Of a DNA stretch of 32,000 bases, positions 2 to 25,647 are shown in pieces. The notes under the pieces were generated by a model. It saw only the letters and a list, made by a program, of their open reading frames with translations. It did no database searches and was not told where the DNA came from. Each line of letters begins with the position of its first letter. Positions within the stretch are counted from its first letter, which is position 1. The stretch spans positions 540,001 to 572,000 of the forward strand of contig NC_010814.1 in NCBI RefSeq assembly GCF_000020385.1, in the 5' to 3' direction. This DNA is from Trichlorobacter lovleyi SZ (lineage in GTDB: Bacteria; Desulfobacterota; Desulfuromonadia; Geobacterales; Pseudopelobacteraceae). A program made the translations under genes and the position numbers.

Positions 2-754
2 AACGCCATCAAGTTTACCGCCGGTGGCGAGATTGTGGTGCGGGCCTCCAGCCGCTCCCGTGGTGACGGCACCGTGCTGTTTGCGGTTGAGGTGCAGGAC
101 TCCGGGATCGGCATGGACCAGGCCACCCAGCAGACCATCTTTGAACCGTTCATCCAGGCTGACAGCTCCACCAGCCGCAGGTTTGGCGGTACCGGCCTGG
201 GGCTGGCAATCTGCAAACAGCTGGTTGAGCTGATGCATGGCACCATCACGGTTGCCAGCAGCCCGGGCAACGGCAGCACCTTCTGCTTTGCGGTGCCGCT
301 CAAGCCGGGTGTGCTGCCTGCGGCAGCGCCGGAGCCGGTGGCGGTGACCGGTCTTGATCAGCCGCTGCAGATTCTGGTGGCGGAAGACCAGCCGATTAAC
401 CAGCGCTTTGTCGCCGAGATCCTGCGCAAGCAGGGACATCTGCCGCTGCTGGCCAACAACGGCAAGGAGGCGGTGGATATCTGGAACAGTACCGCTGTTG
501 ATATGGTGCTGATGGATATCCAGATGCCGGTTATGGATGGCTTGAAGGCTCTGGCTGCCATTCGTGCTGCTGAAGACGGAACCAAACGCCACACGCCGAT
601 TGTGGCTTTAACGGCCCATGCCATCGTAGGCGATCAGGAACGGTTGCTGAATGCCGGTTTTGACGGCTATCTTGCCAAACCGTTGCAGGTTGCCAACCTG
701 TTTGAGGAGATGGCCAGGGTGCTGGAGCAGATCAGCAAGGAGAGGCGCCTATGA
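2..754 (+). CDS. Hybrid sensor histidine kinase, C-terminal fragment (HATPase_c + receiver); 5' end lies outside the window
   Basis: The frame is open from base 2 (NAIKFT = N-box), so the M at 35 is internal. G-boxes DSGIGM and GGTGLGLAI. Receiver motifs [27 protein letters not shown]. The stop overlaps the next start (ATGA 751-754). Confidence 0.9.
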   Translation, partial: NAIKFTAGGEIVVRASSRSRGDGTVLFAVEVQDSGIGMDQATQQTIFEPFIQADSSTSRRFGGTGLGLAICKQLVELMHGTITVASSPGNGSTFCFAVPLKPGVLPAAAPEPVAVTGLDQPLQILVAEDQPINQRFVAEILRKQGHLPLLANNGKEAVDIWNSTAVDMVLMDIQMPVMDGLKALAAIRAAEDGTKRHTPIVALTAHAIVGDQERLLNAGFDGYLAKPLQVANLFEEMARVLEQISKERRL

Positions 755-3594
755 CAACAGCTGCGGATCGGCATGCCGTTGATGAACTGGTGCGTATCGG
801 CCCCCTGCTGGAGGAGGCGCTTGAAGGTACCGCTACAACAGTTGGTGATGCCTTTCTGGCAGCCCTGGTTACCACGCTGGCCAGGGTGCTCAACGTCCGT
901 TATGCCGTTGTTGGCCGCCTGCTGCCGCAGCATGCTGCAATACAGACCCTGAAGGTCTGTGTCGATGGCGAGCTGGTGGAAAACATCGTGTATCCCCTGT
1001 CCGGAACCCCCTGCGAACATGTGGTGGGGCTGGCTCCGCGTTATTTTGCCGCCGGCGCTGCCGATCTCTTCCCGAAAGACGAACTGCTGCGTCAGCTGCA
1101 GGTTGAATGCTATCTGGGGGTGCCGCTGTACTCATCCCGGCATGAGCCGCTGGGTAATCTGTTGCTGATGGACAGCAAACCGTTACCGGAAGCGCTGGTG
1201 CCGCCGGCCCTGAAACTGATGGAGCTGTTCGCCTTGCGCACGGCCGGAGAGATTGAACGGGCTGAGCGGGAGCAACAACTGGCAATTCAGGATATCCACC
1301 TCGGCATCATCCTGAACAACAGCCGCGACGGCCTGTTGACTGCCTCCGCCGATGCCCGCATACTGGCCGTCAACCGGGCTTACTGTACTCTGCTGGGCTA
1401 TGAGGAGCAGGAACTGCTCGGCCGGTCTATCCACGAGATTGAGGCAAATGAGACAATGGAAGAGGTGGATGCCCACACCCGTAAAATCGTTGAGCAGGGC
1501 TTTGACCGCTTTATCAGCCGTCATCGCTGTAAGGACGGCACAACACGGGATCTGGAGCTTTCCATCAGCTATATCGCCGAGGTCGGCCAGTTTCTGACCA
1601 TTGCCCGGGATGTGACGGAGCGCCTGCTGCTTGAGCGACAACTGCTTGATTCCGAACAGCGCTATCAGGCCTTTACCGAGTTAAGCTCCGACTTCTGCCA
1701 TGTCTGTAGCCGTACGGCCGGCGGACCCTACCGTGTGCAGTGGATCGGCGGCCAGTTTGAGCGGATAACCGGGTATGGTAACGATGAGTTGCTGGCCCTG
1801 GGGTGCTGGCTGCCGCTGGTACACCCCGATGACCGGGAGCGGGTGGCGGCAGGGTTGTTACGGCTGTCTGCCGGTGATGAGCTCCGTTCCGAATTCCGGC
1901 TGGTGCGCAAGGATCTGGTTGTGCGCTGGATCAGTGAGCATAGCCGTTGTGTACAGGACCCCGTCAATCCGGATCTGTTGCGCCTGTACGGTTCAGCCCG
2001 TGATATTACCACCGTGCATGACAACACGCTTGCCCTGCAGACGGCGGAGAATGCCTACCGGACCATCTTCAACGCCACTAATGATGTGATCTTCATCATG
2101 GACGCCCAGCAGGGGATGATCATCGATTGCAACAAACAGGCCGTGCAGCTCTTTGGACGCCCGCGGGTGGATCTGATCGGCTCCAACCCGGTGCAGCTCT
2201 CGCCGCCGGATCATCCCGATTTCGGTTTTGAGCAGGCCGCTGCTCATATCCGGTCTGCCATCGAGGAGGGAGCACAGCTGTTTGAGTGGCTTTGTGCGCG
2301 GCCGGACGGCAGCACCTTCTGGGCAGAGGTCAGCCTGCGGGCCGCCGAGATCAATGGCCGTCAGCGGCTGCTGGCGGTGGTACGGGATATCTCGGAACGA
2401 AAACAGAGTATGCAGGAGCTGCAGCAGGCCCGGGATGCAGCGCTGCAGGCCACCACCGCAAAAAATGAATTTCTGGCCAACATGAGCCATGAGGTGCGTA
2501 CCCCCTTGAACGGCATCATGGGACTGAGCCAGCTGCTGCGTACCACCAGTCTGACCGAAGAGCAGGCCGGCTATATGGATATGCTGGACAGCTCTGCCCG
2601 TAATCTGCTGGTATTGATTAATGATATCCTTGATATCTCGCGGATTGAGGCCGGCAGCCTTACCATCCGGCAAACCGCCTTCAGTCCGGCCAAGCTGCTG
2701 CGGGAAGTGGCGGGGATGTACGAAAAAGCGGCTGCCGAGAAAGGGATCGGGCTGGATATCCTGCCGTGCGATGAGCTGCCTGCCGCTTTGATCGGCGATC
2801 CGCTGCGGCTGCGGCAGGTGCTGATCAATCTGGTGGGAAACGCGATAAAATTCACCAGCCACGGTGGTGTCACCCTGCGGGTGGATTGTCTGGAGGAGTC
2901 TGCCACGGGGATCAGACTTGGTTTTGAGGTGTCCGACAGCGGCATTGGTATGTCTGCGGAAACCCTGCAGAAGATCTTTCATCCCTTTACCCAGGCCGAT
3001 GCCTCCACCTCCCGGGTACATGGCGGCAGCGGTCTGGGGCTGGCCATCTGCCGCCGTCTGTCGGAGCTGATGGGGGGGAGTATCCGTGCTGAAAGCAGCC
3101 TGGGGCAGGGCAGCCGGTTTATTGTCGAGTTGCCCTTTGGGCGCTACCTGGGGACGCAGGATACTGAAGAGACTGAAACTGCAGCCCCGGCACTCCGGCT
3201 TGAACCGTTGCGGATTTTGCTGGTTGAGGATCAGGAGGTAAACCGTACCTTTGTACAACGCCTGCTGGAACGGCAGGGGCATCGGATTGCCGCAGCCGCT
3301 GACGGTCTGATGGCGCTGGATCTGCTGGAGCGGGAACAGTATGATCTGATGCTGCTGGATATTCAGATGCCCGGCATGGGGGGCGAAGAGGTGCTGCTCC
3401 AGTTACGCCGGAATGAACGGAAGAACGGCCGTCATCTGCCGGTCGTTGCCCTGACGGCCCATGCCCTGGCGGGTGACCGGGAAAAGCTGCTGGCAAGCGG
3501 CTTTGACGGCTATGTCAGCAAGCCGGTCCAGATGGATCAGTTGCTGGCTGAGATGGGACGAGCACGTGCAATGAAAGGACAACCTCAGCAATGA
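751..3594 (+). CDS. Hybrid sensor histidine kinase (GAF-like N-terminus, about 3 PAS, HisKA, HATPase_c, receiver)
   Basis: 947-aa ORF. GAF-like segment (TPCEHVV...YLGVPLYS...GNLLLMD) followed by PAS-like repeats. H-box [17 protein letters not shown]-box [12 protein letters not shown]-boxes DSGIGM and GGSGLGLAI. Receiver motifs [32 protein letters not shown] overlaps at both ends. Confidence 0.9.
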
Positions 3595-6500
3595 GTGAAC
3601 AGGCTACACAACTGCCGCCGGAAGAGGATCTGCCGGAGTCCGCGGCCGAAGATGCGGACAACACCGATTGGCAGCCGATTACCGACCTGCTGCGGCGCGG
3701 GCTGGGAATTGACTTCGGCTGTTACCGGGCCGGCACCGTTGGACGCAGGATCATGCGCCGGATGGAGCTATTGCAGCTTGACGACGTTGCTGATTACGCC
3801 ACTTTGCTGGCTGCCAGCCAGGAGGAGCTGGAGGCGCTGGGCCGTGATCTGCTGATCGGCGTGACCGAGTTTTTCCGCGACCCTGCCGTGTTCCGCCGCC
3901 TGGCCGATCTGTTGCGCGAGCTGTTGCGGGGCCGTTCGGCCACGGAAGGATTCAGGATCTGGTCAGCCGGTTGCGCCAGCGGGGAGGAAGCCTATTCTTT
4001 GGCGGTACTGCTGCATGACGTGGCGCAGGAGGTGGGATTTAGCGGCGACCTGAAGGTGTTTGCCACCGACGTTCATAAGGGGGCGTTGGAGATAGCCTCC
4101 CGGGGGGGCTACTGCGGCGAACTGCTTGCCGGTCTGCCCGGTCAGTACCTTGACCGGTACTTCCGCTCTGAAAGCGACGGCTGTTTCAGGATTGATCCGA
4201 TGATCCGCCGCATGCTGGTGTTTGCCCATCACAACCTGCTCTCTGATCCGCCGTTTACCCGGATTGACCTTGCCGTCTGCCGCAACCTGCTGATCTACCT
4301 GCAGGCCGAGGCACAACAGCGGGTACTGACGGCCCTGCAATTCTCTCTGGTGCCGGGCGGCCATCTGCTGCTGGGACCGAGCGAAGGGGTCAGCCATCTG
4401 GCCAATGCCTTCAGCGTACTGGATTCAGGCTGCAAGTTGTTTCGTAAAAATGCGACCCCCCGGGACGGCATTGTTGCGCCAGGTATCCCCTGGGTCGCCC
4501 GTAATCCGCTGCTCGCCTCACTTAACCAGGGAACCCGCACTACCGTTACCCTTGACCGGCACCTGCTGCGTGACTACGACCTGATCCTGGATCGTTACGC
4601 CCCGCCAGGCATGCTGCTGAACAGCCAGCGCCAGGTGCTGCATATCTTTGGTGATCTGAGTGAATACCTGCGGCCCCTGACCGGGCGGCTGACCGGCGAC
4701 ATGTTCAGCAATCTGCGGGATGAACTGCGTCCGGCCCTTTCCACCGCCCTGCTGCGGGCAGAACAGCATGGTGAGGCAACGGTGGTGGACCGGGTGCCTC
4801 TGCTGCAGGAGGAATCCTGCCGGTACGTCGATGTCGCGGTGGCTTGTCTGACGGACGAGCGCAGCGACGGCCTGCATTTTCATGTCACCCTGCGCCCGTC
4901 CGACTGGCAGCCGGAAGCCGGAGACTGCAGCAACAGTAATCACCATGAGGTCGACTCGGCCTTGCATCGCCGGGTGGCCGATATGGAACAGGAGCTGCAC
5001 TCCACCCGTCACTCATTGCAGCTGACCATTGAAGAGCTGCAGTCCAGTAACGAAAAGCTGGATCTGGCCAATGAGGAGCTGATTTCATCAAACGAAGAAC
5101 TGCAAAGCACCAATGAGGAGCTGAAGTCGGTTAACGAAGATCTCTACGCCGTTAACAGCGAGCTTGAACATCGCAATGAAGAGCTGCAGCGGTTAAACCG
5201 TGACCATGACAACCTGCTGGCCAGTACCGAGGTGGGGACGGTCTTTCTCGATCAGCAATTACGGATCCGCAAGTTTTCAAGTGCCATCAGCGCCTTTCTC
5301 AAGCTGCTGCCCCAGGATCTGGGGCGGCCGATTGATCATATCGCCTATGAACTGGGTTCGCCCCAGGAGTTCCGTGAACGGCTGCAGCAGGTGCTGGAGA
5401 GTGGTCTGCGCCATGAACAGGAGATCCATACCGGAGCCGACCAGTGGGTTCTGCAGCGGATACTCCCGTTTCGTACCGACAACGGCAGCATTGATGGCGT
5501 GGTGTTGACCTTCACGGATATCAGTGCGGTCAAGCAGGCCCAGGCCGCTGTGGCAGAGATGAACATTCAGCTGGAGCAGAAGGTGATCGAACGGACCTGC
5601 GAGCTGTCTGCAAGTGAGGCCCGGATTCGTGCCTTCATCGAAAATTCAGGTCAGGGTTTCTGGCAGCTGGGGCCTGACCGGTTGACCATCGATCTGAATC
5701 CGGCCCTTTGCTCCATGCTGGGCTACCGCCGGGAAGAGATGCTGGGCCGCTCTCCGCTTGAGTTTGTGGATGCCGAGAACCGCTCGATCTTCCTGTATCA
5801 GATGGGGCGAATCGACGGAACCGAACATCGCAACTATGAAATAACGCTGCTGCATAAGGATGGGCATCCGGTGCCGGTCATGTTTTCTGCCACTACCCAT
5901 CGCACCGTCGAGGGCAAGGTGGATAGTGCCTTTGCCTTTATTACCGATCTGAGCGAACAGAAGCGGGTAGAACAGGAAATCCGGGCCGCCAAAGAGGCTG
6001 CCGAATCGGCCAACCGGGCCAAGACCCAGTTTCTGGCCAACATCAGTCATGAGGTCCGCACTCCGCTGAACGGGATCATGGGGATGAGTCATCTGCTGCA
6101 TATGACCCCGCTGGCCGACGAACAGCAGGACTACCTGCGCCATCTGGATGATTCGGCCCAGAGTCTGCTGTCGGTGATCAACGACCTGCTGGATTTGACC
6201 AGGATCGAGTCCGGCGGATTCGGGACGGAACAGGCCGATTTTCAGCTGGACCAGCTGGCGCGGGATATCCTGCGGATTCATCAGCCGGTGGCCCAGCGCA
6301 AGGGGGTGCTGTTGCAGCTTGAACTGGCGGACGGCATGCCCGGGCTGCTGCGCGGGGTGCCGTTGCGTCTGAAGCAGGTGCTGCATAACCTGGTGGGCAA
6401 TGCGGTCAAGTTTACCGATCAGGGGCGGGTCGTCCTGTCGATTTCCCCCATCATTGTGCCGGGGCAGTCGTTGCGGGTCCGTTTTGCGGTCTGTGACAGC

Positions 6501-7172
6501 GGTATCGGCATGGAGCCGGAGACCATCAAGCGGATCTTTGATCCCTTCAGTCAGGCCGACGAGTCCATCAGCCGCCGCTATGGCGGTACCGGTCTGGGGT
6601 TGACCATCTGCCGTCGCCTGACTGAGCTGATGGGAGGTACGATTGAGGTGGAAAGCACACCGGGCCAGGGGAGCTGTTTTACGGTGATCCTGCCGATGAA
6701 GACGCCGCTGGGGGCCGTGGTCCCTGCCGATGCGCCGGTCAGGCAGGACAGTTTTGAAAGAAATGCATTGCAGGTTCTGCTGGCTGAGGATCAGCCGGTG
6801 GGACGGCTCTATGCCACCCGTCTGCTGGAGCGGCTGGGGCATCGGGTAACGGCGGTGGAGGATGGCAAACAGGCGATTGAGGCCTGGGAGCAAAACTGTT
6901 TTGACCTGATCCTGATGGATGTGCAGATGCCCGGCATTGACGGGACAATGGCCACTGCAAGTATCCGGCAGCGTGAACAGGAGGGCGGCGTGCGAACACC
7001 GATTATTGCCCTGACGGCCCATGCCTTAACCGGTGACCGTAGTAAACTGATGGAGTGCGGTTTTGATGGCTATGTACCGAAACCGATTGATGTTGAAGGG
7101 CTGCTGGCGGAGGTGAACCGGCTGATAACACCGGCTACCGTGCTCTGCAGCCGGAGAGGAGAACAGCCATGA
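3591..7172 (+). CDS. CheR-type methyltransferase fused to PAS/hybrid histidine kinase (CheR-coiled coil-PAS-PAS-HisKA-HATPase_c-receiver)
   Basis: 1193-aa ORF. CheR-like motifs [41 protein letters not shown]-type coiled coil ([37 protein letters not shown]). H-box [42 protein letters not shown]. Receiver motifs [21 protein letters not shown]. Confidence 0.88.
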
Positions 7173-15974: not shown

Positions 15975-17198
15975 ATGGCATCTGTTGTTCAAAAATATGG
16001 CGGCTCCGCAGTTACCTCTCCGGAGCAGATCAGGAAGATCGCCGAGCGGATCATTCAGTCCTACAACGACCGGAATGATGTGGTGGTGGTCATCTCGGCA
16101 CGGGCAGGTGAAACCAACCGCCTGATTGAGATGGCCCAGGAGATGTGCCCGCGCCAGACCGGCAGTGAATATGATCTGCTGATCTCCGCCGGGGAGCAGG
16201 TCTCGATCGGTCTGCTGGCGCTCTGTATCAGCTCCCTGGGCTACAAGGTCAGGACCTATCTGGGCTGGCAGGTGCCGATCATCACCGATTCGCTGCATAC
16301 CAGGGCCTCCATAGAATATATTGATCCGGCAAAAATAAGGGCAGACCTCAACCATGGTGCCATTGTGCTGGTTGCCGGATTCCAGGGGATTGACCGCAGC
16401 GGCACCATTACCACCCTGGGGCGGGGCGGTGGTGACACCTCTGCCGTTGCCCTGGCCCACGCACTGGGAGCAGAGGTGTGTGAACTGTACTCGGATGTTG
16501 ACGGCATCTTTACTGCAGACCCGGCGATCTGCGATGATGCCCGCAAGATTGAGAAGATTTCCTACGATGAGATGCTGGAACTGGCCAGCCAGGGGGCTCG
16601 GGGCGTCCAGATCCGCGCCATTGAGTACGCAAAGAAGCACAACGTGACCATTCATGTCCGCTCGGCATTCACTGCTGAACGGGGCACCCTGGTCGTAAAG
16701 GAGCATATGCCTATGGAAGGTGTGGTTGTTACCGGGATTGTGGCAGACAAGAATGAGGCAAAGATCGCGGTACTCGGTGTGCCCGACAAGCCGGGCAGTG
16801 CCGCAAAGATCCTGACCGGTCTGGCTGATAAGGATATTTCAGTTGATATGATTGTCCAGAACGTGGGACAGGATGGTCTGGCTGATATCACCTTCTCCAT
16901 CTCAAAGACCGATCTTGAAAAGGCGCACCAGATCACCACCCAGATCGCCAAAGAGGTCAATGCGCGTGAGGTGCTTGCCGACCGCAACATCAGCAAGGTC
17001 TCGATTGTCGGTCTGGGGATGAAGAACCACGCCGGCGTGGCAGCCCGGATGTTTACCGCACTGGCCTACAACAACATTAATATTCAGATGATCTCCACCT
17101 CGGAAATCAAGGTCTCGGTGGCCATTGAAGAAAAGTACACCGAGCTTGCCGTGCGGGTGCTGCATGAGGCGTTCAAGGTGGATCAGTGCAGCGAGTGA
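15975..17198 (+). CDS. lysC: Aspartate kinase (monofunctional, two C-terminal ACT domains)
   Basis: Start at ATG 15975 (MASVVQKYGGSAV) with GAGG upstream. Kinase motifs KYGGS, VVVISA. ACT region from EGVVVTGIVADKNEAKIAVLGVPDKPG. An in-frame internal SD + ATG lies at 16698-16715 (see findings). Confidence 0.92.
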   Translation: MASVVQKYGGSAVTSPEQIRKIAERIIQSYNDRNDVVVVISARAGETNRLIEMAQEMCPRQTGSEYDLLISAGEQVSIGLLALCISSLGYKVRTYLGWQVPIITDSLHTRASIEYIDPAKIRADLNHGAIVLVAGFQGIDRSGTITTLGRGGGDTSAVALAHALGAEVCELYSDVDGIFTADPAICDDARKIEKISYDEMLELASQGARGVQIRAIEYAKKHNVTIHVRSAFTAERGTLVVKEHMPMEGVVVTGIVADKNEAKIAVLGVPDKPGSAAKILTGLADKDISVDMIVQNVGQDGLADITFSISKTDLEKAHQITTQIAKEVNAREVLADRNISKVSIVGLGMKNHAGVAARMFTALAYNNINIQMISTSEIKVSVAIEEKYTELAVRVLHEAFKVDQCSE

Positions 17199-17220
17199 TG
17201 GGGGCTGGTGCTTGAAACGG

Positions 17221-17430
17221 CAGCTGCTCACGCGGAGCCCGCGGAGAAAAACCAGCATAGTACGTTAAACCTGGAAAAAGCAGTTACCCACGAAGTGCGC
17301 GAAGAAACACCAAGAAAACCAGATTGTTTAGGCCAAGACGGCAACAACCTTTTGGGTGAATCATCTGTATTCTGTAACCTGTTGAATCTTCGTGAAACTT
17401 CGTGCCCTTGGTGGATATGAACGATTGTTT
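17221..17430. repeat. Structured, non-coding intergenic stretch with short GC-rich inverted/direct words (REP-like)
   Basis: Lies between convergent lysC and the rSAM gene. Words CACGCGGAGCCCGCGGAG, AGTACGT, CACGAAGTGCGCGAAG, CTTCGTGAAACTTCGTGCCCTTGGTG, with complementary pairs CACGAAGT/ACTTCGTG and CACCAAG/CTTGGTG. The ORFs here (17208-17420, 17228-17602) look spurious. Confidence 0.3.
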
Positions 17431-17489
17431 TTTGTGATCTCTGCATTCTTTGGCGGCTAAAAGCTTTTCTGGTAGTAGTGTTATTTCCG

Positions 17490-18794
17490 TCAGCAGGCTG
17501 GTTGCAAATCAGACATCCGTACCCCCAAATCCTGCAGTACCAACCGTTCCAGCGAGGCGTCCAGCATGGCACGATGGCAATCCACCGTGTCAATAGCACC
17601 ATTTTTTTGCAGCGTCAGTAGTCGGCAGCCGCCAAAACAGAGCGGCAGGTAGGCGCAGTCCAGGCATTCATCATTCTTCCAGATATCCAGCCGGTGTGAT
17701 GCGTGGTAATCACCCAACCCGTCGGCCAAGGTGCCGACGCAGAACTCCGGCCAGCCCATCAGGCTTGGGCATTTGTACAGGCTGCCGTCATAGTTGACCA
17801 CCAGGGTCTGCTCCAGATCGATCATGCAGATGCCCATCTGCAGCTTTTCCACCGTAAAACCTCGCCGCAGTATTTCTTCCCTCAGAAACAGGTTTGCCTC
17901 AATCAGCCACGGTTCGTTGGCAAGGACACAGGCTGCAGCATGGGGATCAAACAGGCCGGATTTGGGGTGGATCGGCGAAAATTGCACCGGTCCCAGTTGC
18001 GCCGGATCAAGACCGGCCTCCAGCAGCAGGTCCAGCATTTCCGGGAAACGGCGGTAATTGTCGCGGGTAAAGTTACCACCCGGTTTGATGGTGACCAGAT
18101 CGTACACCGCTGTGAGATTGTCGATGATGGTCTTGAAACTTCCCTTGCCTGATACAAACGGACGCTGCCGGTCGTGAGTCTCCGGCGGGCCGTCCAGGGT
18201 AATGACGGCACTCTTCAGGCCAAGGGGCAGCAGCTCTTCCACCACAGCCCGTGTCAGCAGGGTGGCGTTGGTAACCAGGCTGAATGAAAAGGTTCTACCT
18301 CGGTTTGCAGCCGCTGCCAGCAGCGGGGTGGCAATTCCCTTCAGTCGCGTGGTTGCCATCAGCGGCTCACCGCCGTAAAAACGTAGTTCAACATTACGCC
18401 CCTGATCAAGCTGCTCTCTGATGAGGTAATCAACCAGAATTCTGCCGGTTTCCTCACTCATCTCCTGGCCGTCCCGGAACGGCTCCTCAAAACAGTAGGG
18501 ACAAGCCAGGTTGCAGGCCAGGGTCAGTACCACCGTGGCGGAAAAGAGCGGGGTATGGGCATTGGTGTGATCAATAATGGCTGCCATTTTGCTACGCTCA
18601 GCCTCAAGGTCATCGGTCCAGAGCTGAAGCTGCTGCAGGGTGGCGCGTTCTTCAGGGGAAAGGGTGTTGTTTGCAATGGAGGTCAACAGCTGCTCAGGTA
18701 CCCTGACCACGGACCCCTTGCGGGTGGAGTAGAGGATGACGAAACCGGGCCGCTGCGGGTCGGGAAATGTGATGACATAGCGGGAAAACGGCAT
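17490..18794 (-). CDS. Radical SAM / SPASM-domain peptide-modifying enzyme (RiPP maturase candidate; possible N-terminal RRE-like domain)
   Basis: CX3CX2C motif LACNLACPYCFE about 100 aa from the N-terminus. C-terminal SPASM-type cysteines (YKCPSLMGWPEFCVG ... ECLDCAYLPLCFGGCRLL). The start is reassigned to ATG 18794 (MPFSRYVITF) with AGGAG at 18807-18803, 8 nt upstream. The track start at 18914 would overlap the upstream peptide gene and has no RBS. Confidence 0.85.
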   Translation of the reverse strand: MPFSRYVITFPDPQRPGFVILYSTRKGSVVRVPEQLLTSIANNTLSPEERATLQQLQLWTDDLEAERSKMAAIIDHTNAHTPLFSATVVLTLACNLACPYCFEEPFRDGQEMSEETGRILVDYLIREQLDQGRNVELRFYGGEPLMATTRLKGIATPLLAAAANRGRTFSFSLVTNATLLTRAVVEELLPLGLKSAVITLDGPPETHDRQRPFVSGKGSFKTIIDNLTAVYDLVTIKPGGNFTRDNYRRFPEMLDLLLEAGLDPAQLGPVQFSPIHPKSGLFDPHAAACVLANEPWLIEANLFLREEILRRGFTVEKLQMGICMIDLEQTLVVNYDGSLYKCPSLMGWPEFCVGTLADGLGDYHASHRLDIWKNDECLDCAYLPLCFGGCRLLTLQKNGAIDTVDCHRAMLDASLERLVLQDLGVRMSDLQPAC

Positions 18795-18813
18795 GGAATA
18801 GTCTCCTGAGAAT

Positions 18814-18842
18814 GTGAATGGGGAGCAAAACTCCCCATTCAC
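18814..18842 (-). promoter_or_regulatory. Intercistronic stem-loop between precursor ORF and maturase gene
   Basis: 12-bp perfect stem (plus strand GTGAATGGGGAG 18814-18825 / CTCCCCATTCAC 18831-18842) with a 5-nt loop. It starts 17 nt after the peptide stop and ends just before the maturase SD. Confidence 0.6.
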
Positions 18843-18859
18843 ATAACTTCCGTTGTTAC

Positions 18860-18949
18860 TTACTTGCGGGTACTGCTGGTACCGCCTGTGCAGCAGGATG
18901 CTACCATCTGACACTCTTCCATTCCCTGATTCAGCACTTCAATTGCCAT
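18860..18949 (-). CDS. 29-aa candidate RiPP precursor peptide MAIEVLNQGMEECQMVASCCTGGTSSTRK
   Basis: Hand translation of the minus strand: ATG at 18949-18947, GGAGA at 18960-18956 (6-nt spacer), TAA at 18862-18860. It is below the ORF-track size cutoff. The core-like C-terminus is rich in Cys/Gly/Thr/Ser, and the ORF lies directly upstream of, and co-oriented with, the rSAM/SPASM gene. Confidence 0.7.
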   Translation of the reverse strand: MAIEVLNQGMEECQMVASCCTGGTSSTRK

Positions 18950-19095
18950 AACACATCTCCATTGAATATGATTCCATCTGCTGACAGATGGATAAACAGG
19001 GTGTTTACCCTAGACGGACTGCAAATATTTTGCTAGTAAGAATTTGCTACAAAATTGCATCTGATGATTAGCCAACGAAATCGGGGAGCACACGC

Positions 19096-20961
19096 TTGAA
19101 CCGTATCTGCAGCAATAAAGTATTGTTGATTCTGCCGATACTGGTATGCCTTACGGCCATGCCGCTCTTTGCTGCCGATGATGCCCTGGAGGATCTGGGT
19201 ATTATTGAGGCCCAGGCTGAATCGGTTGTCTCTGCCTCTCGCAGCCCCCGTCCCGCCTCCCGCATTGCAGAAAACATCACCGTCATCACTGCTGACGACA
19301 TTGAACGCCTGAATGCCCATACCCTGGCAGAGGTGCTGCAGACCGTGCCGGGCATCCAGCTTGATTTTTTGCGCACCCCCGGCACATTCAGCTTCTTTAA
19401 TGTCCAAGGTGCCTTGAATACCACGGTGCTGGTGCTGGTGGATGGTATCCGCCAGAATGATTTTGACCAGAACATGGCTATTGTTGGCCTGATTCCGGTG
19501 CAGCAGATTGAGCGGATCGAGATCATCAAAGGGGCAGCCTCAGCTGCCTGGGGACCGGCCCTGGGCGGGGTGATCAATATCATCACCAAATCCCCTGATG
19601 CTGAGCGCAAGTTCAGCGGCATGGTGTCCGGCTCCACTGGCTCTCAGTTCACCGCAGATTCCCGCGCAGAAGTCAGCGGCACCCTGGATCGTTTCGGCTA
19701 TTATCTGACTGTTGCCAACCTGCGTTCCGATGGCCTGACCCCCAATACCGGCACCAACCAGAACAACCTGTTTACCAAACTCTCCTACCAGTTACCCCAC
19801 AATGGCAGCCTTACCTTTGGCCTGTCCTACCTGACTGCCAGTCCGGGGCTGGATGAAGGGGAAACAGTGAGCTGGGGCTTTGTCCATGACAACAACCAGT
19901 ATCGCCGCACCAATGCCTACCTGAAGCTTAACCAGCCCCTGACTGACCGGTTAACCCTGGAACTGGACAGCTTTCTGACCAACCGTGATGACCATACCAA
20001 GTTTGGCGGCTTGGATGGCTCAGGTAATCTGACCTTTTTTAATGACTATGTGGTGCGGGACACCAACCAGGGGATCAATGCCCGTCTGCGCTGGGGCGAC
20101 TACCAGAAGAGCCTGCTGCTGGGGCTTGATTATAGCCATGCCTGGGCCATCAACAGGGATGCGTTAAGCAGTGATCCGCCAGTCTATGACCGGAGCTGGG
20201 ACCGCTGGGGCATCTATGCAAATGGTGCCTATACGGTGGGACAACTGACCATTCTGCCCGGTGCCCGTTATGACATTACCGGCACCTCTGGCGATGTCAC
20301 CAGCCTGACCCTGGGGGCCACCTATCAGCTGGCTGAACATACGTTGCTGCGGGCCTATGCTGCCCAGGGCTATACCCTGCCCACACCCCGTGCCGATAAC
20401 AAGCTGCAAAAGATCAAGACCATTCAGGCCGGGATCGAGAGTGAGGCGCTGCCTTTTCTCTGGCTGAAGGGGACCTTTTTCTTTAATGCCCTGCGTGACA
20501 GCCAATCTATCGGTACCGTAACCACCACCAACCAGCAGCGCCAGGGGATTGAGCTGGAGGCCCGCACCGCGCCGCTGTACGGTCTTTCCCTGACCAGTGG
20601 CTATACCTACCTGGATGCCTGGGACAGTGATACTGGCCAGCGTCTGCACACCAACTATAATCAGGCGGTTCCGCCCCACACCGTGAAACTGGCCTTGAAC
20701 TACGATAACCGTGAGCTGGGGCTGCGCGGTACTGTAACCGGTAACTATGTCTGGTGGAACAGGGATGAAAGCACTGCTGCCCGTGACACCGGCATGATCT
20801 GGGATCTGCATCTGAACTGGCGGTTGAAGTCATTTTATAAACTGACACCGGAGTTGTTCTTCTCTGCCCACAACCTGTTCAACGGTGTACAGACTACGGA
20901 TACCGAGTTATACACCAATGCCAAGCGCTGGTTTGAAGGCGGCCTGCGGGTGAAGTTCTGA
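19096..20961 (+). CDS. TonB-dependent outer-membrane receptor (small, about 620 aa)
   Basis: TTG start with GGGGAG 7 nt upstream. Signal peptide ...CLTAMPLFA/ADD. Plug motifs NITVITADDIERLNAHTLAEVLQTVPGIQL and IERIEIIKGAASAAWG. Beta-barrel-like alternating sequence ending in a terminal aromatic residue (GGLRVKF). Confidence 0.9.
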   Translation: MNRICSNKVLLILPILVCLTAMPLFAADDALEDLGIIEAQAESVVSASRSPRPASRIAENITVITADDIERLNAHTLAEVLQTVPGIQLDFLRTPGTFSFFNVQGALNTTVLVLVDGIRQNDFDQNMAIVGLIPVQQIERIEIIKGAASAAWGPALGGVINIITKSPDAERKFSGMVSGSTGSQFTADSRAEVSGTLDRFGYYLTVANLRSDGLTPNTGTNQNNLFTKLSYQLPHNGSLTFGLSYLTASPGLDEGETVSWGFVHDNNQYRRTNAYLKLNQPLTDRLTLELDSFLTNRDDHTKFGGLDGSGNLTFFNDYVVRDTNQGINARLRWGDYQKSLLLGLDYSHAWAINRDALSSDPPVYDRSWDRWGIYANGAYTVGQLTILPGARYDITGTSGDVTSLTLGATYQLAEHTLLRAYAAQGYTLPTPRADNKLQKIKTIQAGIESEALPFLWLKGTFFFNALRDSQSIGTVTTTNQQRQGIELEARTAPLYGLSLTSGYTYLDAWDSDTGQRLHTNYNQAVPPHTVKLALNYDNRELGLRGTVTGNYVWWNRDESTAARDTGMIWDLHLNWRLKSFYKLTPELFFSAHNLFNGVQTTDTELYTNAKRWFEGGLRVKF

Positions 20962-21818
20962 TGCGGCGCCTGGTCCTGTGCATAGTCGCCCTGGCGTTGT
21001 TGGTTCCCTCATTGGCCCGGGCCTATGATCTGCTGGTACTGCAGAGCAAGCGCAATCCGGCGTATGACGAGATGCTGAAAGGGTTTAGCGAGAGACGGAA
21101 CGTTTCCCGGCGGGTGATTGTGCTGTCCGACTATGCCGAGGTGGATGTGGCCCGGATTGCACGGGAGGACCGTCCGACATTGATCCTGGCTGTGGGAGAT
21201 ACGGCCCTGGCAGCGGCCCGCAAGGTGCGCACCATCCCGGTGGTGGCGCTGATGTCCCTTGATCTGCGCCGGTTGCAGGCCGTTCAGCCGAACCTGACCG
21301 GCATTGATATGTTTGTGGCACCGGAAAATTACTGCAATCTGCTGCGTCAGATGAAGGCGCGCCGGGTGGGAATCCTCTATAATCCTGCCAGAAACGGCTG
21401 GTACCTGCGCCAGGCGCGGCAGGCCGCCGAAAAGGCGGGTATCACGCTGGTGGCGCGCGAGGTGACCGATCCCCGCGATACCCTGACCAAGCTGGCGTCG
21501 CTGGCCGGCAAGGTGGATGCGCTCTGGATGCTGCCGGATGTCACGGCGGTAACCAGGGAAACGGCAGAGGCCTATTTCCATTTCAGCCAGCAGCAGGCGG
21601 TGCCGGTGGTGTCGTTTGCCGCCAACTATCTGGGGCTGGGAGCGGCGGCGGTGTTTGAGATTGATCGCGCAGCCCTGGGACGCCAGGCCAATGAGATGGT
21701 GACATCACTGCTTGACGGAGACGCTGTTGACAGTACCTCGTTACGCTTTCCCCGCGGCGTTGTACTCAAGACCAATGCCGGCATCCTGAGACGTCTGGGG
21801 GCATCCCTTGAAGAATGA
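20961..21818 (+). CDS. Periplasmic substrate-binding protein, COG2984 / ABC_sub_bind-like (no cognate permease or ATPase nearby)
   Basis: 285-aa ORF with signal peptide [21 protein letters not shown]. Periplasmic-binding-fold pattern ([18 protein letters not shown]..., [12 protein letters not shown]..., VDALWMLPD..., VPVVSF). The start overlaps the receptor stop (TGATG) and the stop overlaps the kinase start (ATGA). Confidence 0.7.
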
Positions 21819-23818
21819 ATCGTACAAAACAGCCGCAGCCGTGCAGATGCCACCGCTCCGGCGTTGCAATGACTGCTTTTAAGGAGCTGACCGTGCTACG
21901 ATGTGCAAAATGGTCAAACATCCGTACCAGGTTTCAATGCAAGCTCTTCATCATCTTTACCCTGCTGACCTTTCTGATCGTCTCCACACTCAGTACCCTC
22001 TTTATTATCCATGAGATCAAAAAATCAAAAAAATCTGCGGCGGCACATCTCCGGCTGCAGGTAGAATATCTGGCTGAATCGATCCGGCTGCCGCTGTTTG
22101 CAGAAAATGCCGAGCTGCTGCGGCAGATGGCCGAGCAGGCCGCCCGGTTGCCGGAGGTCCGTGCGGTGGTGATCAGGGCCCCGGACGGCAGGGTCCTGGC
22201 AGCGGTCTATCCTGCGTCAGCGACCGGTAGCCGCGAGGAAGTGCTCAGTCAAAGCATCGAGGTCTGCAGCAATCCCCAGGCAGGTTCACCGATTGCGTCT
22301 CTGACCGATGGTCTTGATACGCCGTCGTTACTGGGCAGTGTGCGGATCGAACGGGGGACGGCCGATATGGACCGGGCTGTCCGCAAGCTGATTGCCTGGT
22401 CCGTGGCCCTGGCTCTGCTCTTCTGGCTGGCGGTTTCTTTACTGAGCCATCTGGTGCTGCGGCAGGTGACCCGTTCGTTCAATAATCTGGTGAGCGGTAT
22501 TGCCGCCCTGCAGGATGGCGACTACGGCACTCTGATCGAGGTTGATTCCGATGATGAGCCGGGCCGTGCTGCGGCAGCAGTCAACGGCCTGGCTCGTTCG
22601 CTGCAGCAGCGCTCCGAGGAAAACAGGCAGGCCAGGGAAGAGCTGCTCCAGGCCAAGTCCGAAGCAGAGGCTGCCAATACCGCCAAATCTGAATTTCTGG
22701 CCAATATGAGCCATGAGATTCGTACCCCCATGAGCGGGCTGATCGGCAATGCCCAGCTGCTGCGCTTGACCCAGCTGAATGCTGAGCAGACGGGGTATCT
22801 TACCAACATTGAGACTGATGCGAAAAACCTGATGTCGTTAATTAACGACGTGCTGGATATCTCCAAGATTGAGGCCGGAAAACTTGAACTTGAGAGTGCG
22901 CCGTTCAGTCTGCGCAGTTGCGTTGCTCAACTGCTCAAGTCCCAGGAAGCGCGGATAGCCGCCAAGGCGATTGTGCTAACGCATGAAATCGCTGCCGATC
23001 TCCCTGACAGCCTGTTCGGCGATCAGTTGCGCCTCAAACAGATCCTGTACAACCTGGTGGGGAACGCCATCAAGTTTACCGCCAAAGGTGAGATACGGGT
23101 CAAGGTTGAGTTGCTGGAGCGCCATGATGACAAGGCCCGCTTCTGCTTCAGTGTTACTGACACCGGCATCGGTATCAGGCCGGAGGCGCGTGAGAAGATC
23201 TTCGCACCGTTTATACAGGCTGATGCCTCGGTGACCCGCCGTTTCGGCGGCACCGGCCTGGGGTTGTCGATCTGCAGCCGGCTTGTCCAGCAGATGGGAG
23301 GGGGGATAACTGTTGAGAGCGAGGAGGGGAAAGGCAGCACCTTCTCCGTCACCCTGCCGTTTCTGATCAACTCGCAGCCGCTGCCTCAGCAGGAAACGCT
23401 GCCGCAGGACCGAAAACTGATGTGGGAAGGGGCTCCATTACGGATCCTGCTGGCGGATGACAGCGAAACCAACTGCACCATGTTGAGTATTCTGCTCTCC
23501 CGCTTTGGCCATAGTGTCACCCCGGCAGGTGACGGGGCTGAAGTGTTGCAGCAATGGCAGAAGGGTGGTTTTGATGTTGTCCTGATGGATATTCAGATGC
23601 CGGTTATGGACGGCATGGAGACAACCCGGGTTATCAGGGAGCATGAAAGGAAAAACGGCGGGCATCTTCCCATTATCGCCCTGACGGCCCATGCGCTGAA
23701 AGAGACGCGGGAGCATATGTTAAGTGCCGGTTTTGACGGCTATGTTTCAAAGCCGATTGATCTGAAACTGCTGCATGATGAAATGCGGCAGGTGATTGTG
23801 CAGGATGGGAAGATGTAG
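21815..23818 (+). CDS. Hybrid sensor histidine kinase (2 TM + periplasmic segment, HAMP-like linker, HisKA, HATPase_c, receiver)
   Basis: TM helices [22 protein letters not shown] and [20 protein letters not shown]-box [42 protein letters not shown]. Receiver motifs [28 protein letters not shown]. The true start could instead be ATG 21866 (MTAFKEL). Confidence 0.88.
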
Positions 23819-23832
23819 TCGTTCCAGGCTGA

Positions 23833-25647
23833 TTAGGCCTTAATCAATCGCGCCAGTTCCTGGCTGACCCCTGCCACGGTGGCAAGTTCCTCAACCGTGG
23901 CATTTTGTATCCCTTCCAAAGAACCAAACCGCGTCAGGAGCAGCCGCTCCAGTTTCGGCCCGACACCGGGTATCTCCCGCAGGGCTGAGCGTAGCGTTTC
24001 CCTGTCCCGCAGGCGGCGGTGATAGCCGATGGCAAAACGGTGCGCCTCGTCCCGGATAGCTGCCAGCAGCTTCAGCGGGGCCGAGTCCTGGCGCAACCTG
24101 ACCGGGTTGCGGCGGCCCGGCAGAAAGACCCGTTCTTCAGTCCGCTCGACATGAATATCTTTGCCGTCACCTTTGACCCTGCTTTTTGCCAGTGAGACAA
24201 CTGCCGGCCGTTCCGAGAGTCCCAACTCGGCGAGTACGGACAGGGTGCTGTTCAGCTGTCCGATGCCGCCATCCACCACCACCAGATCCGGCAGGCCCCA
24301 TTGTTCAATCCGTTCCGGGCTGAAGCGCCGGGCAAAGACCTCCTGCAGCATCCCGAAGTCGTCCTGCCCCTGGCTCTCCCTGATCCGGTAGCGCCGGTAG
24401 CGTTCCTTGTCAGGCAAGCCATCCAGGAAGGCGACGCCGCTACCGACGGAATGACGCCCCTGCAGGGTGGAGATGTCGTAGCACTCAATCCGGCGGGGCA
24501 GCCGGGGCAATGCGAGTTTCTGCTGCAGCTCTGCAAGGGTTCGCTCAATGCCCTGCCGGGTTGCTGATTTTTCAGCCAACGCCGCCTGGGCATTGCGGGT
24601 TGCCAGATTGACCAGGTTGAGTTTGTCGCCACGTTTGGGCTGCTGCAAACGTACCTTTTTGCCCTTCAGCTCGCTCAGCCACTCTTCCAGGGACTGCCCG
24701 GCGTCAAGGCTGAGCGGCAGCAGCAGTTCGTCGGGGATAAAACGCTCGTTGCCGTAATAATACTGGATAAAGGTTGCCAGGGTGTCGCTGGTATCAAGTC
24801 CGCCCGAGCCATGCAGGACCGTGCTGCCGGACAGGCTGCCGCCCCGCACGAACAGTACGGCAATAGCCAGACTGTCTTCGTTGCCGGCCAGCCCGAGGAT
24901 GTCGCTGTCGCCCCCCTGGCTGACCATCTTCTGGTGTTCCAGGGTGGTATCAATTGCCTTGAGCAGATCGCGCCAGCGGGCAGCCTCCTCATAGTGCAGC
25001 CCCTCGGCGGCCTCCTTCATCCGTTGTCTGAAGCCGCTCACCAGATCTTTGTTCTTTCCTTCCAGAAACAGGACGGCCCCCTCCACCAGCAGGTTGTATT
25101 CTTCGGCTGTGATCAGGTTATGGCAGGGGGCGCTGCACTGGCCGATCTGGTGATACAGGCAGGGTCGGGAACGGTTCAGGCAGGTTTTCAACGGGTAGTG
25201 GCGCAGCGGAAACATCCGCTGCAGTTGACGCAGCACCTCCCGTGCCGCACTGGCAGAGGCGTAGGGACCGAAGTAGCGCGCGCCGTCACGGCTGACCTTG
25301 CGTACCACCGTGAAGCGGGGAAAACGCTCAGTGAGGTCGATGCGCAGCGAAAAAAAGGTCTTGTCGTCCTTGAGGTTGAGGTTGTAGCGGGGCTGATGTT
25401 GCTTGATCAGGGTGTTTTCAAGCAGCAGGGCCTCTTTTTCAGTGTCGGTGATGGTGAATTCAATCGAGGTTACCCGTGCCATCAGGAAACGGACCTGGGG
25501 GCGTCCATCGGTCGCACCGAAATAGTTGCTGACCCGCTGCCGCAGATTACGGGCCTTGCCGACATAGAGGATCGTGCCGGTTGCATCCCGCATCAGGTAG
25601 ACGCCGGGGGCGGTGGGAAAGCTGCGGATGCTGTCGCGAAGTTCCAT
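23833..25647 (-). CDS. uvrC: Excinuclease ABC subunit C
   Basis: 604-aa ORF. GIY-YIG N-terminus (PGVYLMRDATGTILYVGKARNLRQRVSNYF), a UVR-like segment, and a C-terminal (HhH)2 (IPGVGPKLERLLLTRFGSLEGIQNATVEEL). Confidence 0.95.
   Translation of the reverse strand: MELRDSIRSFPTAPGVYLMRDATGTILYVGKARNLRQRVSNYFGATDGRPQVRFLMARVTSIEFTITDTEKEALLLENTLIKQHQPRYNLNLKDDKTFFSLRIDLTERFPRFTVVRKVSRDGARYFGPYASASAAREVLRQLQRMFPLRHYPLKTCLNRSRPCLYHQIGQCSAPCHNLITAEEYNLLVEGAVLFLEGKNKDLVSGFRQRMKEAAEGLHYEEAARWRDLLKAIDTTLEHQKMVSQGGDSDILGLAGNEDSLAIAVLFVRGGSLSGSTVLHGSGGLDTSDTLATFIQYYYGNERFIPDELLLPLSLDAGQSLEEWLSELKGKKVRLQQPKRGDKLNLVNLATRNAQAALAEKSATRQGIERTLAELQQKLALPRLPRRIECYDISTLQGRHSVGSGVAFLDGLPDKERYRRYRIRESQGQDDFGMLQEVFARRFSPERIEQWGLPDLVVVDGGIGQLNSTLSVLAELGLSERPAVVSLAKSRVKGDGKDIHVERTEERVFLPGRRNPVRLRQDSAPLKLLAAIRDEAHRFAIGYHRRLRDRETLRSALREIPGVGPKLERLLLTRFGSLEGIQNATVEELATVAGVSQELARLIKA

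Follow-up and report, generated by a model that had tools for sequence, protein, structure and literature searches.

Introduction

Quorum sensing by peptides is considered a trait of Gram-positive bacteria, and the outer membrane of diderm bacteria excludes peptides of the size involved. In methanobactin operons, whose product is a ribosomally synthesized and post-translationally modified peptide (RiPP) with metal-chelating heterocycle and thioamide groups, MbnA, MbnB and MbnC are encoded together with the TonB-dependent receptor (TBDR) MbnT and the periplasmic binder MbnE, which has no ABC partner in the operon; the MbnBC maturase is not a radical S-adenosylmethionine (rSAM) enzyme, a MATE protein serves as the exporter, and regulation proceeds by sigma and anti-sigma factors via an extension of the TBDR. 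Short peptides are also the substrates of rSAM/SPASM enzymes, with PQQ and mycofactocin as examples of their small products, and the SCIFF, ranthipeptide and sactipeptide systems are mostly Gram-positive. In Fec-type signalling, a TBDR with an STN domain acts together with an anti-sigma factor and an ECF sigma factor, and PfeS/PfeR sense ferric enterobactin and induce its uptake, with PfeA as the TBDR. To our knowledge, no described system joins a TBDR, a periplasmic binder and a kinase with the producer of a RiPP. Here we analyse a five-gene module of this kind, composed of a geopeptide precursor, its rSAM/SPASM maturase, a TBDR, a PF04392 (COG2984-type) substrate-binding protein (SBP) and a hybrid histidine kinase (HK). 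The module lies in a 32,000-nucleotide stretch of the Trichlorobacter lovleyi SZ genome (contig NC_010814.1, positions 540,001 to 572,000), which we call the window and whose first nucleotide is position 1 in all window coordinates below.

An initial annotation of the window had read the precursor and maturase genes as one circuit with the divergently transcribed TBDR-SBP-HK triad, possibly serving a peptide signal or a peptide metallophore. In this study, we report the distribution of the module in genomes and metagenomes, the divergence of its parts relative to one another, and the regulatory elements in its intergenic regions, and we weigh the possible functions of the modified peptide. A literature search returned nothing relevant on geopeptides, on the TIGR04229 and TIGR04280 families, or on their linkage to TBDR, SBP or kinase genes.

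Results

Conservation of the five-gene linkage

The pairing of the peptide cassette with the triad had been drawn from gene neighbourhood in the window, and by the terms of the initial annotation would have been refuted had the two never been adjacent in related genomes; they proved to be adjacent almost universally, through rearrangement, change of flanking genes and duplication. A scan from the maturase side with one genome per species yielded 22 orthologous loci at 42-91% identity, distributed among Geobacteraceae, Desulfuromonadaceae, Trichlorobacter, Geomesophilobacter, unclassified 'Deltaproteobacteria' metagenome-assembled genomes (MAGs) and one Dissulfurispiraceae MAG. Of the genome loci with a usable flank, 19/19 have a TBDR homolog next to the maturase gene; an SBP is adjacent in every locus whose contig is long enough to show it, and a kinase in 13 of 16. 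Rearranged layouts keep the link: the TBDR gene is downstream and convergent in L016 and L017, L020 has all its genes in one direction, and in L019, the Dissulfurispiraceae MAG, the rSAM gene is followed directly by the SBP gene. Since the aspartate kinase and uvrC flanks of the window are common only to the three closest genome relatives, the linkage is not residual synteny.

A second scan, in which metagenomes were queried with an SBP alignment, gave 80 loci at 45-80% identity. Here the TBDR gene stands directly 5' of the SBP gene in 56/57 loci, the maturase gene is divergent and 5' of the TBDR gene in 40/49, and a kinase gene lies downstream of the SBP gene in 50/60. Whole modules are also duplicated. 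Locus L066 of Trichlorobacter ammonificans (OW150024.1, 4594-16852) contains two complete modules in tandem, each with rSAM, precursor, TBDR, SBP and HK genes; the two are 54% identical in the rSAM enzyme, 42% in the TBDR, 49% in the SBP and 27% in the HK, and their precursors look unrelated (...CCKGAQSAKL and ...CCYAAVMSLR). In addition, L104 has two precursor/maturase pairs with a single triad, and in L009 one maturase gene is flanked by two TBDR-SBP pairs. From these comparative data, we consider a functional link among the five genes to be highly probable.

The triad also occurs on its own. In L073, L076, L077, L115 and L116 it is intact and of the same clade but has no maturase or precursor gene near it, and these may be 'listener-only' or piracy loci. 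In L089 (1684, minus strand), L095 (4323, minus strand) and L132 (7899, minus strand), a geopeptide-like open reading frame (ORF) stands beside an intact triad, and no maturase gene is present. L103 has no maturase match within a flank of only ~1.9 kb 5' of its TBDR gene.

Several of these loci have further features of their own. In L115, the kinase is of the HisKA_3 type and a NarL/LuxR-type response regulator is encoded beside it. L095 resembles L068 with the maturase gene deleted between a TPR/Peptidase_MA_2 gene and the precursor; we considered this TPR/Peptidase_MA_2 gene as a candidate leader peptidase and rejected it, as it is found in ~5 loci only and L068 and L095 are visibly syntenic. 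Beside the tandem modules of T. ammonificans lie a DarT-like gene, a UvrD helicase gene, a nucleotidyltransferase pair and genes for two TP_methylase-domain proteins.

Co-diversification of the peptide with the sensing proteins

Pairwise identities were compared among 29 dereplicated complete modules by Spearman correlation and by partial Mantel tests controlling for the maturase. Divergence of the peptide core is correlated with that of the SBP (Spearman r 0.64), of the kinase sensor half (r 0.61) and of the maturase itself (r 0.62), more weakly with that of the TBDR (r 0.39) and least with that of the kinase catalytic half (r 0.24). Once the effect of the maturase is removed, the core still tracks the SBP (partial Mantel r 0.43) and the kinase sensor half (0.37; p = 0.0005 in both cases); the values for the kinase catalytic half and the TBDR are 0.10 and 0.07, the latter not significant. 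The SBP and the kinase sensor are likewise correlated with each other (partial Mantel r 0.55). By these measures, diversification of the peptide is coupled specifically to that of the SBP and the kinase sensor, the two parts that sense in the periplasm, with the qualification that Mantel tests are anticonservative on related sequences.

Parts of the module also appear to have been exchanged between modules. In L011, L013, L014, L070, L081 and L109, the SBP is much closer to that of the window (60-74% identity) than are the TBDR (38-40%) and the maturase (52-56%). The adjacent kinases of L013, L070, L081 and L109, at 62-72% identity to the window HK, are likewise much closer; that of L011 is 34% identical, and L014 has no adjacent kinase. 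The pattern suggests that SBP-kinase pairs and TBDR-maturase-precursor sets have recombined between modules.

Geopeptide precursor and maturase

The precursor encoded in the window is a 29-aa peptide, MAIEVLNQGMEECQMVASCCTGGTSSTRK, which matches the TIGR04229 ('geopeptide') model with 39.2 bits against a cutoff of 30. It contains the leader motif IEVLNQG, an invariant CC pair at residues 19-20, and a polar/basic tail, TGGTSSTRK. The maturase gene begins 66 nt downstream of the precursor gene; an alternative GTG-initiated ORF reaching 18914 would overlap the precursor. The enzyme matches TIGR04280 ('geopeptide radical SAM maturase') over its full length with 699.8 bits against a cutoff of 400 and the SPASM model TIGR04085 with 52 bits against a cutoff of 27; it has the CX3CX2C motif within ACNLACPYC and SPASM cysteines at its C-terminus. 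The initial annotation had called the pair a RiPP cassette; judged by both curated cutoffs, the peptide and the enzyme are members of an already named family, the geopeptides, which is computationally defined and uncharacterised. The next-best family matches of the maturase are CefB, TIGR04463 and PapB, all Cys-peptide maturases, with scores far under the cutoffs of those families, and among solved structures the closest to it is 5WGG, that of CteB, a SCIFF maturase that forms thioethers.

A homologous small ORF, mostly preceded by a strong Shine-Dalgarno sequence, was found 5' of 63 out of 67 maturase genes. These precursors follow the pattern [LIV]x[VI][LI]xxG, 6-12 residues, CC (rarely CxC), 7-11 residues and a stop, and their conservation is limited to the leader motif and the CC pair. 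The earlier description of the peptide as 'thiol-rich' was thus an overstatement: of its cysteines, the CC pair alone is conserved family-wide, the single other Cys of the window peptide lying in the leader. The tails are of two types, either polar/basic as in the window (CCTGGTSSTRK) or hydrophobic/aromatic (CC[YWF]...), and no double-glycine or other recognisable cleavage motif was found in the precursor family. A variable tail around a fixed CC pair looks like diversification of specificity and not like a conserved chelating group.

Receptor, binding protein and kinase

Domain content of the module proteins was confirmed with NCBIfam and Pfam; NCBIfam has no curated model for the TBDR, the SBP or the kinase, which obtained only generic matches below cutoff. 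The TBDR, below every specific NCBIfam cutoff, has Pfam Plug (80.6 bits) and barrel (78.7 bits) domains only, with no N-terminal STN signalling extension; a signal peptide is visible in the translation, and the barrel is of the 22-strand type.

The SBP matches Pfam ABC_sub_bind (PF04392) with 61.9 bits and has a signal peptide ending in ...SLARA/YD. The best fold matches of its AlphaFold2 (AF2) model (pLDDT 86) are 3LFT, 3LKV and CD0873; the matches to 3LFT, 3LKV, 6HNI and 6HNJ have E about 1e-16. It scores 41.5 bits against the TrpX equivalog, far under the cutoff of 390, and no partner ABC permease or ATPase is encoded in the window, nor is one conserved across about 100 loci. Known ligands of PF04392 proteins are L-Trp, L-Tyr and L-Phe (PMC10443332), and a literature search on the family yielded no others.

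The HK consists of a transmembrane segment (TM), a periplasmic PDC/sCache-like domain of ~125 aa, a second TM, and HAMP, HisKA, HATPase and REC domains, as read from Pfam matches and the structure model. In the AF2 model of its N-terminal part (pLDDT 82), the periplasmic domain is predicted to be PDC/PAS-like, with a fold that resembles the extracellular domain of WalK, LapD-type periplasmic domains and CitA; HK relatives carry sCache_4 (PF09984). What changes from locus to locus is the catalytic and output portion, which contains either HisKA or HisKA_3 and may have or lack PAS and REC domains; the periplasmic sensor and HAMP are constant. The proposal that the SBP is a sensor accessory, made in the initial annotation, is consistent with its pairing to kinases of constant sensor domain and varying catalytic and output parts.

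Word-indexed searches with the HK sensor domain returned few proteins, mostly truncated. We therefore rely for its census on an exhaustive HMMER profile search of 1.84 billion proteins, in which 269 had E <= 1e-30, and architectures were read for 65 representatives of the 150 best profile matches. HATPase_c is present in 64 of these 65 and GGDEF or EAL in none of them. The initial annotation had associated such triads in other proteobacteria with GGDEF/EAL outputs; besides their absence from the 65 representatives, the third genes examined in about 100 loci all encode kinases.

The start of the HK is annotated differently in three public records of the identical locus, which give 667 aa, 649 aa (ATG at 21869) or 641 aa (GTG at 21893). 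Since alignments with HK homologs start at about residue 23-35 of the 667-aa form, one of the shorter forms is favoured.

Regulator and promoter elements

To search for recurrent neighbours, all predicted proteins of about 105 loci were clustered. The sole further recurrent neighbour is an NtrC-type response regulator (REC, sigma-54 AAA+ and HTH_8 domains), found in 25 loci either beside a non-hybrid kinase of ~526 aa or at the maturase end, for example in L118 (12468-13913, minus strand), L144 (4929-6386, plus strand) and L013 (1930-3507, plus strand). The regulator is a sixth, lineage-specific gene of the module.

Upstream regions were scanned for sigma-54-like promoters (GG-N10-GC with at least 9 of 12 consensus positions), with the expectation taken from shuffled sequences and the TBDR side defined as the 300 nt upstream. 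Such sites precede the TBDR in 12/22 loci that have the regulator (about 1.2 expected) and in 10/57 other loci (about 3.0 expected), and they precede the precursor in 13/63 cases (about 1.9 expected); L134 and L143 have them on both sides.

The divergent control region of the window contains two other elements, located 25-66 nt 5' of the precursor ATG. An 18-bp element on the minus strand at 18998-19015, GTCTAGGGTAAACACCCT, includes the inverted repeat AGGGT-N4-ACCCT; it occurs once in the window, with 0 occurrences expected by chance, and is invariant in the closest relatives despite divergence of the remaining spacer. A hairpin, CCATCTG-N4-CAGATGG, at 18974-18991 stays paired in L001, L002 and L006, where the two arms carry compensating changes. 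These inverted repeats could function as an operator or as a 5'-UTR structure. On the other side of the region, the TTG start and Shine-Dalgarno sequence of the TBDR are conserved in L003.

Locus layout and flanking regions

Coordinates of the module are given in Table 1; those of all five genes, as well as the length of the spacer, agree exactly with the initial annotation when checked against the ORF map and the sequence. The 29-aa peptide, the 434-aa rSAM enzyme, the 621-aa TBDR and the 285-aa SBP also appear, independently called, in public annotations of identical contigs. Translational coupling within the triad had been proposed at both junctions: the TGATG overlap of the TBDR and SBP genes stands, whereas the ATGA overlap of the SBP and HK genes requires the HK start at 21815, on which public callers disagree.

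Table 1. Features of the geopeptide module in the T. lovleyi SZ window
Feature	Coordinates	Strand	Length	Description
rSAM/SPASM maturase	17490-18794	-	434 aa	From internal ATG; TIGR04280, TIGR04085, Pfam Radical_SAM
Geopeptide precursor	18860-18949	-	29 aa	TIGR04229 match; GGAG 8-11 nt 5' of ATG
Divergent control region	18950-19095		146 bp	Between precursor ATG (18949) and TBDR TTG (19096)
TBDR	19096-20961	+	621 aa	TTG start after GGGGAG; Pfam Plug and TonB_dep_Rec_b-barrel
PF04392 (COG2984-type) SBP	20961-21818	+	285 aa	Pfam ABC_sub_bind
Hybrid HK	21815-23818	+	667 aa	Longest ORF; alternative starts at 21869 (ATG) and 21893 (GTG)

The module is flanked by housekeeping genes, with gdhA and aspartate kinase on one side and uvrC and amt on the other. 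As the initial annotation had stated, the module is accompanied by no ABC permease, ABC ATPase, exporter or peptidase, and by NCBIfam, Pfam and ORF content none is encoded in the whole 32-kb window. The gap at 17199-17489, between the convergent aspartate kinase and maturase genes, is ~290 bp of non-coding sequence. A GC-rich hairpin within it, CTCACGCGGAGCCCGCGGAGAAAA, is common to L002 and L006, the remaining gap sequence having diverged, and is probably a bidirectional terminator. We rejected a small conserved ORF as an explanation of the gap, which is unconserved except for this terminator-like hairpin, and a 124-aa ORF at 17228-17602 (minus strand) has no Pfam match. An Rfam search of the whole window matched no RNA family, and a search of 17100-24000 for generic promoters and terminators gave no more matches than expected from shuffled sequence. 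Elsewhere in the window, positions 3591-7172 (plus strand) encode a 1193-aa fusion of CheR_N and CheR methyltransferase, PAS domains and a HisKA-HATPase-REC hybrid kinase; translational coupling joins it to a 947-aa PAS hybrid kinase encoded upstream (751-3594), an unusual architecture.

Discussion

A proposed chain of production, release, recapture and sensing

The conserved gene set can be read as a geopeptide system in which a peptide is made, released, recaptured and sensed. The rSAM/SPASM enzyme would recognise the [LIV]x[VI][LI]xxG leader of the precursor and modify the core around the invariant Cys-Cys pair, most likely by thioether cross-linking, by analogy with sactipeptides and ranthipeptides. 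The modified peptide would leave the cell by a route encoded outside the module and, being too large for porins, would return to the periplasm via the dedicated TBDR. There it would be captured by the SBP, which, lacking an ABC partner, would act as a co-sensor docking on the PDC-like periplasmic domain of the HK. The kinase would then alter gene expression: in many relatives, the adjacent NtrC-type activator would act on sigma-54 promoters of the receptor operon and of the precursor, closing a feedback loop, and in the window the output would pass through the hybrid-kinase phosphorelay. We advance this complete chain tentatively, as a proposal with somewhat less than an even chance of being correct in all its steps.

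Several observations weigh against it. No exporter or peptidase recurs among the clustered proteins of the about 105 loci, about one triad in six lacks a maturase, and the adjacent kinase is missing in 10/60 loci. In the window itself, no sigma-54-like site in the spacer passed the scan, and no Hpt protein or response regulator was found adjoining the HK. With the maturase accounted for, divergence of the TBDR does not follow that of the peptide core (partial Mantel r 0.07), and the correlations obtained for the SBP and the sensor come from tests that are anticonservative, in a setting where gene linkage itself yields correlated divergence. Finally, because solved PF04392 relatives bind single aromatic amino acids, the SBP cleft may be too small for a peptide of 1-3 kDa, and its ligand could be a small processed fragment.

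Alternative explanations

That the five genes are merely chance neighbours within one lineage could be argued as long as their link came from a single locus with a 146-bp spacer in which no promoter match is statistically significant; with adjacency in all 19 genome loci and in 40/49 metagenome loci, under changed flanks and gene orders, and with tandem duplication of the whole set, this explanation is effectively refuted and its probability is negligible. In another explanation, the peptide is the output of the circuit: the triad senses some other external compound and switches on the precursor/rSAM operon, whose product might serve as an antimicrobial, for instance, or act inside the cell. 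The shared divergent control region of the window, the sigma-54-like promoters before precursors in relatives with an adjacent NtrC-type regulator, the lack of an encoded exporter and the amino-acid binding of the SBP fold family all agree with such an arrangement. Sigma-54-like promoters are, however, at least as enriched before the TBDR operon, and a generic cue would explain neither the joint duplication and divergence of whole modules within one genome nor the fact that divergence of the core tracks the SBP and the periplasmic sensor and not the catalytic half of the kinase. We consider it unlikely that the peptide is only an output.

The peptide could instead be a public-good metallophore or cofactor: the Cys-Cys product, or a fragment of it, would bind a metal or be redox-active, would be released and re-imported by the TBDR and handed over to the SBP, and the kinase would sense the loaded compound and induce uptake. 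A TBDR and a periplasmic binder beside a RiPP form the layout of methanobactin operons, and a TBDR with a two-component sensor that of PfeA/PfeSR; the CC pair is invariant, the small ligands known for the SBP family (PMC10443332) would fit a small processed product of the PQQ or mycofactocin kind, and the five maturase-less triads noted above would be 'pirate' receptors. An inner-membrane importer, a reductase or a metal-release enzyme is, however, not conserved among the clustered loci. The only conserved potential ligand atoms are the two thiols, which the nearest characterised enzymes would consume in thioethers, and the residues flanking CC, polar in some loci and aromatic in others, change in concert with the SBP and sensor, which is unexpected for a fixed chelator. 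A metallophore or cofactor role appears unlikely to us. Because the CC-flanking residues vary widely and co-vary with the sensor, and because no import or metal-release machinery is conserved, we favour a cell-cell or kin signal of autoinducer-like character over a metallophore.

In its most specific form, the signalling proposal would make the geopeptide system a diderm peptide-pheromone circuit, with an rSAM-cross-linked RiPP as autoinducer, a TonB-dependent gate, a periplasmic binder/kinase receptor, pherotype-like diversification into orthogonal modules, several to a genome, and triads that listen without producing; in this extended form it is possible, though doubtful. If true, it would add a new form of wiring to cell-cell communication, in which a RiPP signal has a TonB-dependent gate and a binder/kinase receptor to itself; if the product were a metallophore, a new class akin to chalkophores would result. 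Geobacter, Trichlorobacter and Desulfuromonadales, in which the system is found, are important in metal reduction, dechlorination and electroactive biofilms, and their social regulation is poorly understood. The proposal also offers a candidate ligand for an orphan PF04392 clade and a candidate function for the uncharacterised TIGR04229/TIGR04280 family.

Comparison with known systems

The geopeptide family itself, to which the window pair belongs by both curated cutoffs, is defined by the peptide and the enzyme alone, as a 'hypothetical equivalog', and the TBDR, SBP and kinase lie outside its models. With the SCIFF/ranthipeptide and sactipeptide systems (CteB, PapB), the module shares a SPASM rSAM enzyme whose substrate is a short precursor that contains Cys and is encoded alongside. 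The window maturase has the rSAM CX3CX2C motif and the SPASM domain that mark thioether-RiPP enzymes, with the CC pair as the only candidate cross-link donors; it scores far below the cutoffs of those families, however, and their systems are not coupled to a TBDR, SBP or kinase. Methanobactin operons resemble the module in placing a RiPP beside a dedicated TonB-dependent importer and a periplasmic binder, but the window encodes neither MbnB/MbnC-type maturases nor a MATE exporter, and the module is without an exporter or an STN extension and has instead an rSAM maturase, a PF04392 binder and a histidine kinase.

On the sensing side, a periplasmic binder encoded beside a kinase and acting as its co-sensor is known from LuxP-LuxQ and TorT-TorS, and in the window the binder gene is likewise adjacent to and co-oriented with that of a kinase with a periplasmic domain. 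The sensor of the window kinase differs from theirs as a single PDC/sCache_4-like domain, and its contact with the SBP is putative. With PfeA and PfeS/PfeR, the module would share a TBDR-imported ligand that is sensed in the periplasm and the induction of the receptor. Fec-type signalling also employs a TBDR in signalling across the envelope, but the window TBDR has no STN extension and the window no sigma or anti-sigma genes, so that the module is not a member of that class. Beyond its geopeptide pair, the module is by analogy a functional hybrid of methanobactin-type operons, binder-dependent kinases and TBDR-coupled two-component sensing, and it is a member of none of these three.

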